Assembly (NCBI RefSeq): GCF_006345805.1
Contig: NC_043005.1
Coordinates: forward strand, 20,212,001-20,276,000
Reading direction: 5' to 3'
DNA length: 64,000 bases
Origin: Octopus sinensis
Lineage: Eukaryota
The notes beneath the pieces are model-generated. The model was given only the letters and a program-made list of their open reading frames with translations. It was not told where the DNA came from and did not search any database. Numbering within the stretch: the first letter of the stretch is position 1; each line of letters begins with the position of its first letter. Shown one piece after another: positions 32,301-52,850 of this stretch. Both the position numbers and the translations under genes were made by a program.

Positions 32301-35300
32301 TCAATTCATTGATGTAATCTTTGAAACAATTTAACGAAATGTTCTTAACACAGTCAATTTACAATTTTTGTCTGAAAGCGAATTTCATTACAGGTAAATT
32401 CAACAAAATATAAAATTATTTAAATTTTGTTTGAAACATCAGCATAGAAAATGAGTTGTTGGCTAATATTCAATGAGAATACAAAGAAAAAAATGATGCA
32501 AATTACTGGATTATTTATCAGTTAAGATTAATGTACCATAGAAGAAAACTAAATACTGGAATTTGTTTTTGAAGAAAACTAGGAAATGAAATACATCCTA
32601 TCAACTATATGAAAAACTCACATGTATATATAAATACAGTGAAACATACAATAATGAACTAAAAGACAATTGTAAGTGGTGGAGATACAAGTAAAATTCA
32701 ATTTTTGCAGCCATCACATATGTTATTTACAGTTTATACTGAAAATTGCTTCTGCTGGATACATAGAACTTAAGATTACAAATGTTGAGCTAGTTCTGCA
32801 TCAAGTGTATTGATTTATTCTTTAATACAGAAAGTGACTTTTCCTTACATCGTCATCATCCAACGTCTGCTGCCCATGCAAGCAAGCTGCACCAGACTCT
32901 AGTCTGATTTGGCATGGTTTTTATGGTTGGATGCTCTTCCAAACACCATTTTACAGATTGTGCCGAGTGCCTTTAGGTGGCACCAGCCTTGCAGGTCGAC
33001 CTTCACTTAACAGTTCTGCTGTGGAGTACCGGTTTACTCGAGTACAGCAGGGTGCCAGGCACCTTGGACTCCTGTCATCTCACCTGAAAGGTTCAGAGTC
33101 CTGAGATCATTCTTCAGTACTTCATCCCTGGGCCTCCCACTTCCACACTTTACATCTACTTTGAAAAATCGGCACTTCTTTATAGAGCTGTCAACAACCC
33201 TCGTCACATGATCAAACCAACAGTCTTCTCTCTTACACACAGCAACTAATTCCTATGCCTAACTTCTCTCTCAAAACATTAGCACTGTCAAACGTACACT
33301 TATGTTACAAATCCAGCAGAGCATACTAGCTCATTCCTTTCTAACCTTCACATGTCCTCTGCATTCAGGCCTCACGTCTCACAATCATGTAGAATGTAAA
33401 CACTCATATACACCATATAGTTCTACAAAACCTCAGTCATCACCCAAAATCAAGAGAAAAAAATAATCTGTTACAATGAGTTAAGAATTTGAAACATTTT
33501 TTGTAGTAACATACCCTCTAATTCTTATGACAAAAGCCAGTTTTGCACCACTGGGAACATAGTAGTTTCCAGCTCGGCGAGCTTCACGACGCAGCCTGAT
33601 CTCTTCACGTGCCTGCATGCGATACTCTTTTACATATTTCTCAGCTCGGTGAAAGATTGTTATCTTCTTCTTCTTGAGTTTCTGAAGTGAAAGATTAATT
33701 ATTGGATCACTCTACTGCTTTAAAATGGACAACCAGAAATGGGAAGAGCAAACTAAGAACTTTGCCATTCATCTGTGAAAAATATTCAGATGGCATATAT
33801 AAGCTAACAACTATTTAACATTCATTCACCTGTTCCAGTTTATAAATCAATAATTTCTTACAGTTGAGTTACATAACCACTAAAGAGAAATTAAAACATT
33901 TTTATAAATACCTGGACTACATTTTAACAGATTTTAATAAAAAAAAATTAAAAAAAGAAATTTAATTACTGTTCAATTTTTAATCAAAAACAAGTTTTCC
34001 TTTTCAACATCAATATCTAGTTCTAATAAAACTATCTCCACTAAAAAGAATGCAAAAGGACTAAAGAATAGTAAGAGATACATACGGCTTTTTTCTGGAG
34101 AAGGTCAGCCTTTCGTTTGATAGCCTGAGCTTTCCTGGTTTTCCTTCTCTTCAATATACTTTCAGGTACTTTGGGGATTTTTTTGTCACTGGAAAGAAAA
34201 GTAATATTCAGATAGAGAAAAAAAACTATATTCATGGAATTTAGAAATAACTTCATAAGAGCTTAAATTATCAATACCAAAAGATGTAATAAGTCAATGA
34301 GAAAACAAAATCACACTTACCCTCCAGCTTCTTTCCCAGCACTGAAAAATTAAAAAAGTACACATTGAAAACTTTCATGTTACTCAATATTTCAAATAAA
34401 TTGATAATCATCTAAAATATGTTTAAACTGATGATAATCATCTAAAATATGTTTAAATAGAAAATATATATCATCATTTAATGTCCGCTTTCCATGCTAG
34501 CATCGGTTGGACGGTTCTACAGCTGGATGCCCTTCCTAATGCCAACCTCTCCGTGAGTGTAGTGGGTGCTTTTTACATGCCACCGGCACAGGTGCCAGAC
34601 GAGGCTGGCAATGGCCACGATTAGATGGTGCTTTTTACATGCCACCATATATATATATATATATATATATATATATATATATATATATATTGCATATTAT
34701 TTGGACTGTTTTTAAAAGCACAATAAAACACTCAGGATATTGTAAGTTGGCCTCATCAGCTAAACATAGATAACATAGATTAATAAGGTTTTAAAGTACT
34801 GCACTCACAAATGCAAAGTGGTGATTTCAATTCCTCGACTGGACAGGGCAAGGTGTCCTTGAGCAAAACATTCCACTTTGCTCCTGCCTGCACATCAGTA
34901 AATGAGTAACCCTACAACAGACTGGCATGCCAGTCAAGAGGAATCTTATGATCTCTTATATGCTACAAAAACTTGGTAACTAACCCAATGAGTCCTAGTA
35001 CTTGAAACAGTAAAGGTTGCACACAATAGTGTAGACAAGATATTCTAGTATCACCACTTTAACCATTTTAGCATTTAGATTACTCTCCCAAATTTATTGC
35101 TTACTTATGAACAGTTTTGTTTTAATCATACATTATCTTGAAGCTATGAAATCTCACTGATGTGATTGTGTATTTTTAGAAAGATATAGTAGGGTAGGTG
35201 TGAGAGGCAGGATCTAGCTGGTTTGAATACAAAACAGGTAGAATATTTGGCCAAATTAAATGCTAACGATTTAAGCTCTAGAGCATTAACAATTAAAAAA

Positions 35301-52850: not shown

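Follow-up and report, generated by a model that had tools for sequence, protein, structure and literature searches.

A tandemly duplicated array of symmetric microexons encodes a basic N-terminal tail on octopus ribosomal protein uL30

Runs of tiny symmetric exons are known from the schistosome micro-exon genes (MEGs) and from the MEG-like part of VAL-6, where most of the coding sequence lies in microexons and pools of protein variants are made by exon skipping (PMC4350168). A different setting is provided by the neural eMIC/Srrm4 programme, whose targets are very small, frame-preserving exons with neuron-specific, eMIC-dependent inclusion, associated with long AG-free zones, UGC motifs and a UCUC-rich tract, and, in fly only, with a weak 5' splice site (PMC8797185). 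Among the core ribosomal proteins, human RPS24 has three tissue-regulated microexons of 3, 18 and 22 nt, which lie between exons 4 and 6, are not all multiples of 3 and alter a terminus of the protein (PMC11162997). Finally, insect RpL23a and RpS6 carry terminal extensions that are lineage-specific, basic, of low complexity and rich in K, A and P in the manner of histone H1 (PMC11764897); extensions of this kind are further characterised by staying on the mature ribosome and binding nucleic acid.

Where does the octopus gene for ribosomal protein L7 (RpL7, uL30) belong among these systems? The window, which is the whole stretch of DNA analysed, comprises 64,000 nt (G000:C9:20212001-20276000) within a 2.72-Gb assembly of Octopus sinensis, and the array of interest lies on its minus strand. 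Like the MEGs, the gene strings together tiny symmetric exons (14 in number, each of 18-24 nt and phase 2-2), but these supply only 294 of 1032 coding nucleotides (28%), the composition of the encoded peptide (K33, A22, E9 and one L in 98 residues) is not that of the signal peptide or the secreted or membrane-anchored products of MEGs, and the product is a cytosolic housekeeping protein; octopus RpL7 is thus not a MEG. It shares with eMIC/Srrm4 targets the size of the exons and the preservation of frame, and some of its AG-free zones and UGC motifs resemble theirs, but it differs in having near-perfect donors and T-rich tracts, in the clustering of its exons by duplication and in their apparent inclusion in all four sequencing runs; it is at best a doubtful member of that programme. 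The first-pass annotation had seen no precedent for such exons in a core ribosomal protein, a view that RPS24 overturns, although the octopus gene differs from it in having 14 symmetric, duplicated exons that add 98 residues. The peptide is itself a lineage-specific, K/A/P-rich terminal extension, and by analogy the octopus uL30 tail would work most like the H1-like ribosomal tails, combined with a MEG-like gene layout.

The identity of the gene is clear, as it is the octopus RpL7/uL30 gene. When all 14 microexons are joined to the five core exons the product is a protein of 343 aa, identical to the RefSeq O. sinensis RPL7 isoform X1 (XP_029640698.1), while the core with zero microexons gives a product of 245 aa. 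The protein (P0002) contains the domains PF00327 (Ribosomal_L30) and PF08079 (Ribosomal_L30_N), which place it in the uL30/RPL7 family; it matches solved uL30 chains and its uL30 core of 241 aa is ordinary. The same 343 residues are given for chain F of PDB 9EHO, which is a model of O. bimaculoides ribosomes, yet carries the O. sinensis sequence for this chain. Judged from the assembly, the locus is apparently the sole copy in the octopus genome, and the remaining four of the five genome matches were rejected as a second octopus copy, being only 43-56% identical and situated on small contigs.

The gene begins with a probable non-coding first exon (53225..53255, with an approximate upstream end), which has a pyrimidine, 5'TOP-like start and a donor, GTAAGTAT, at 53224; upstream of it are a pyrimidine run and what we take, by eye, to be an ETS-like motif. 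The ATG exon (52840..52856) has 17 nt, consisting of 6 nt of UTR and 11 nt of coding sequence, and ends in phase 2. It is followed by microexons 1 (50504..50521, 18 nt), 2 (48592..48612), 3 (47993..48013) and 4 (47413..47433), each of the last three with 21 nt, then by microexons 5 (45596..45613, 18 nt), 6 (44490..44513, 24 nt) and 7 (41383..41406, 24 nt), and by a further seven of 21 nt each, namely 8 (40874..40894), 9 (39914..39934), 10 (39394..39414), 11 (38402..38422), 12 (37563..37583), 13 (35516..35536) and 14 (34321..34341). The core is encoded by exons of 103 nt (34086..34188), 167 nt (33515..33681), 138 nt (31954..32091) and 110 nt (29890..29999), and by a fifth whose coding part, up to the stop codon, has 209 nt (29164..29372). 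All of these exons are on the minus strand.

The array had been proposed as 14 phase 2-2 microexons between the ATG exon and the first core exon, and every one was recovered (two of 18 nt, ten of 21 nt and two of 24 nt, 294 nt in total). A strict cassette scan found 13 of the 14, each with a length divisible by 3, whereas 200 shuffles of this 18.6-kb interval under a dinucleotide model gave 0.49 such cassettes on average and never more than 4; exon 8 falls just below the pyrimidine cut-off of the scan, with 12 pyrimidines in 20. The splice signals also hold up, with pyrimidine-rich YAG acceptors and GTRAGT donors on every microexon, extended to GTRAGTAT in 13 of the 14. The claim that any subset of the microexons can be skipped in frame and stop-free is equally correct, since none of the 120 possible junctions gives a stop, and on paper 12,288 distinct N-termini could be produced. 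This absence of stops is nevertheless trivial, because every junction codon starts with A, G or C. That gene predictors miss such exons, as had also been said, does not apply here, where the RefSeq models contain all 14.

In all 14 microexons the donor agrees with U1 at 7-8 of its 8 intronic bases, against 5-7 in the four core donors, and the purine content of the microexons is 70% against 57% in the core, as would be expected of efficiently included exons. The polypyrimidine tracts are T-rich (11-17 T per 20 nt) and not UCUC-rich. The 60 nt upstream are free of AG in nine of the 14 microexons compared with two of six flanking ordinary exons, and TGC is found at -18 or -22 in five of the 14; as these motifs are confined to two duplication families they represent about two events.

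The array grew through tandem duplication of exon plus flanking intron. This is seen on self-comparison, where exons 2, 3 and 4 fall into units that are 92% identical and exons 6 and 7 lie within a duplication of 1 kb at 85%, while older duplications link 10, 11 and 12 (76-89%) and 8, 10, 11 and 13 (73-84%), exon 8 being an older member of the family 8/10/11/12/13. The youngest duplicate is exon 3, which is identical in sequence to exon 2 and has flanks that differ from those of exon 2 at 3 of 190 bases. The shared phase follows from this history, because 2-2 cassettes copied inside a single phase-2 intron keep the frame automatically, and the symmetry of the exons is therefore no evidence of design or selection for skipping. 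One exon departs from the pattern: of its 21 bases, exon 12 has 8 that differ from exon 10 and 7 that differ from exon 11, while the flanking intron differs at only 8-9% (Fisher p 0.0009 and 0.0027, in a set of six non-independent pairs). This could reflect selection acting on the peptide, splicing elements that are conserved, or flanks homogenised by gene conversion. A looser scan revealed no decayed cassettes of the same families, and every one of the 14 exons remains intact with its frame preserved. Intronic snoRNAs were considered as the duplicated unit and rejected, as the window has no Rfam match at the gathering threshold. A 760-nt repeat, with 85% identity between its copies, has been inserted twice in the microexon introns (46346-47095 and 36458-37192), with no exon inside it.

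How is the array spliced? Transcript contigs placed on 29000-34640 came from four of the 24 runs listed, representing four studies and presumed to be RNA, with splice joints that follow the introns. All four runs splice exon 14 to core exon 1 over a canonical intron. Past exon 14 their loose ends run on into exon 13 and then exon 12, with an exact match in the 30 letters shown, covering the whole of exon 13 and the final 9 nt of exon 12. No partner of core exon 1 other than exon 14 appears among the loose ends listed for the four runs. Exons 12-14 are those read letter by letter in the contigs, a form of assembly in which rare variants are lost. The loose ends measure 49, 93, 212 and 49 nt, and the 212 nt found 5' of exon 14 in a contig of 989 nt are one short of the 213 expected for exons 4-13, the simplest among the possible readings. 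The two loose ends of 49 nt stop precisely at the base that distinguishes exons 10 and 11, which is also the base of the T72A difference from O. vulgaris; exon 11 skipping, a SNP and A-to-I editing all fit this break.

The RefSeq annotation, which is a non-exhaustive list of isoforms, holds seven models that encode five distinct proteins of 322-343 aa. Model X1 is complete, X2 and X3 lack exon 2 or 3, X4 lacks exon 7, X5 lacks exon 2 or 3 together with 7, and X6 and X7 lack exon 2 or 3 as well as exons 5 and 6. Nine of the 14 exons (1, 4 and 8-14) are present in all seven models. Most of these skips could reflect ambiguous mapping of short reads, because exon 3 repeats exon 2 exactly and exon 7 ends in the same 16 nt as exon 6, such that short overhangs mimic the skip-2/3 and skip-7 junctions. 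The junction of exon 4 to exon 7 in X6 and X7 has no such mimic, and mapping ambiguity cannot explain it. The first-pass annotation had envisaged a ladder of proteins from 245 to 343 aa from a freely tunable array; the array itself is real and spliced, and some skipping is annotated, but the ladder has so far found no support, as the annotated skips touch five of the 14 exons and remove at most 21 residues. The octopus microexons seem to be mostly used together.

The peptide encoded by the microexons has 98 residues, with K33, A22, P8, E9 and a single L, and a net charge of +25. A phylogeny built from 40 core sequences unites O. sinensis, O. vulgaris, O. bimaculoides, Argonauta and the two proteins P0129 and P0235 in one clade (support 100/99), in which P0129 and P0235, as sisters to the octopods, are probably squid-like proteins. 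The N-terminal tails in this clade have 102 aa in O. sinensis, 95 in O. vulgaris, at least 85 in O. bimaculoides, 40 in Argonauta (P0003), 54 in P0129 and 100 in P0235; the long tails all keep a basic K/A/P composition, and little of their sequence can be aligned. The O. vulgaris protein has one 2/3 unit fewer and the substitution T72A, which falls in exon 11 and is the sole residue that differs. The O. bimaculoides core differs from that of O. sinensis at five of 241 residues, and its tail repeats every 7 residues (a period matched by 0 of 2000 shuffles), with different units. A period of 7 is weak in P0235 (27 of 2000 shuffles) and not significant in Argonauta (642 of 2000) or P0129 (1151 of 2000), the tail of P0129 having a period of 5-6 residues instead; the differing period of P0129 and the spread of lengths hint at different unit sizes or independent growth. 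A search for genomic DNA of the squid-like proteins kept 80 metagenome loci, which were at most 69% identical and were set aside.

Outside the cephalopods, the long tail is absent from bivalves and gastropods, whose N-terminal part has 2-11 aa in 23 of 23 proteins tested. This count leaves out Bulinus P0179, a second Babylonia protein, most non-mollusc matches and the unnamed matches besides two. The Bulinus protein has 297 aa, and its extra N-terminal part is not K/A-rich and resembles an upstream mis-start. Basic tails also occur in a nemertean and two insects, but are shorter, at 18-33 aa. The rat L7 N-terminus, according to Lin et al. in 1987, reportedly contains tandem repeats of 12 aa. 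A genome-wide habit of adding microexon tails to ribosomal protein genes was ruled out for five genes examined, as strict scans of 20-40 kb around RpL23a (three loci), RpL22, RpL6, RpL14 and RpL4 picked up just isolated hits of varying length, none of them forming an array that codes for K and A. Octopus uL4 (G000:C3 near 70306812) has a C-terminal K/A/T-rich repeat tail with units of 7-8 residues; this lies in a single open frame, whereas in the uL30 tail each repeat unit has its own exon.

What might a tail of this kind do on the ribosome? In solved ribosomes of other eukaryotes the uL30 N-terminus touches the rRNA expansion segment ES7L, which uL4 also adjoins, and the length of ES7L is 210 nt in yeast, 341 nt in fly and 876 nt in human (PMC10281867). 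Octopus ES7L has about 537-563 nt and a GC content of 73-75% in five of five rDNA copies, with the rDNA located by means of 5.8S and the bounds of ES7L placed approximately, in part by landmark motifs. Because uL30 contacts ES7L elsewhere and octopus ES7L is enlarged and GC-rich, the tail most likely lies beside it as a flexible polycation. A long ES7L does not require such a tail, since human uL30 is tail-less, with only 248 aa, despite the longer human ES7L. An AlphaFold2 model computed from an alignment of 10 rows reached a mean pLDDT of just 44.4 and was uninformative; the low value of the tail is not taken as evidence of disorder because the known core was likewise below 50. The 28S rDNA copies are dispersed over many chromosomes, and there are at least 40 matches to 5.8S.

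The likeliest reading of the locus, and one that we consider reasonably probable, is that of a mostly co-included, duplication-grown basic tail on uL30. The order of events may have been that a symmetric phase 2-2 coding cassette arose within the first coding intron and was then repeatedly copied along with the intron sequence beside it, so that the protein gained 6-8 in-frame residues per copy; the copying can be read directly from the duplicates. With near-perfect donors and purine-rich bodies, most transcripts would include most exons, giving the 98-residue K/A/P-rich tail with minor skipping mainly in the young duplicates (2/3 and 5-7). The tail would prolong the N-terminal helix of uL30 where the 60S subunit faces the solvent, and would most likely sit against the GC-rich ES7L, comparable to the H1-like tails of insect ribosomes, and its length would vary chiefly across species by gain and loss of exons and less across tissues. 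It is rather unlikely that there is instead a single constitutive isoform, with the RefSeq variants due to mapping ambiguity or to allelic exon copy number and the tail a tolerated, largely neutral expansion that frame-safe duplication allowed. The mimicked skip-2/3 and skip-7 junctions, the single 2/3 unit of O. vulgaris and the scarcely alignable tails of 40-102 aa in the clade would all suit such a neutral origin. It is opposed by the exon 4-to-7 junction, by the intactness of all 14 exons with no decayed relative in the looser scan, by the basic composition that every long tail retains and by the divergence of exon 12 from 10 and 11, which outpaces that of the flanks in comparisons that are non-independent.

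The notion that the cassettes are combined under regulation to give uL30 tails that differ by tissue, stage or temperature, possibly under control of the neural eMIC/Srrm4 programme, is unlikely. It draws on the in-frame, stop-free nature of every subset, the seven RefSeq models, the two runs that branch at the base diagnostic of exons 10 and 11, and the regulated microexons of RPS24 as a ribosomal example (PMC11162997). The AG-free zones and the TGC motifs also belong to the features of eMIC targets (PMC8797185), but an upstream AG is missing from some ordinary neighbours too and the motifs reduce to about two events; the narrow range of annotated variation, the donors and T-rich tracts, and the constant partnership of core exon 1 with exon 14 among the junctions listed for the four runs count further against this notion. 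Far less probable is a true count of 13, with the exon 2/3 pair arising as an artefact of assembly or haplotype. Such an error might explain why the unit flanks are so nearly the same, why the protein of the sister species O. vulgaris has one copy and why one copy is missing from five of the seven RefSeq models, but the units are non-identical, lie 599 nt apart and contain microsatellites of different lengths, and both copies occur in X1 and X4. A broader proposal, also improbable on present evidence, concerns the coleoid cephalopods, in which the uL30 N-terminus would be a modular, exon-per-repeat polycationic arm, its length set between species by exon gain and loss and between tissues or temperatures by regulated skipping of exons 2/3, 5-7 and perhaps 11. 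If true, ribosome populations of different charge beside ES7L would result, and the splicing of one single-copy core gene would make ribosomes heterogeneous.

The microexons are already annotated in RefSeq and apparently undiscussed in the literature. No published description of the array or the tail was found in open-access PMC and bioRxiv. The preprint on 9EHO (PMC13321053) contains no uL30, RPL7, extension or exon in its main text and no uL30 or RPL7 in its supplement, according to term searches. The same preprint describes the H88 rRNA break of cephalopods, to which the exon-by-exon tail of uL30, a core ribosomal protein encoded by a single-copy gene, adds another peculiarity of the cephalopod ribosome. 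The RpL7 array also shows cleanly how a low-complexity domain can grow when microexons are duplicated in tandem, with copies of several ages side by side at a single locus. As octopus ribosomes can already be purified, and cryo-EM maps and a translation assay in vitro exist for them (PMC13321053), the idea of a freely tunable tail is now easy to test.

Several smaller observations concern the surrounding assembly. Divergent ribosomal protein genes, some with very short introns, are present on the small contigs C12598, C11702, C9082 (loci L002-L004), C12762, C8594, C8595 and C9300 of G000, and probably entered the octopus assembly by contamination from other eukaryotes, for instance parasites. 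Two near-identical RpL23a-like copies (G000:C27:17275483 and 17425161) have their start and domain in different frames and are unrelated downstream; they look like duplicated processed pseudogenes of the gene on C6. Within the window, the minus strand carries fragments of a reverse-transcriptase-like repeat at 24742-25890, 26516-26998 and about 55050-56680, which we take, from a motif, to be of LINE type and which are ordinary octopus repeats.
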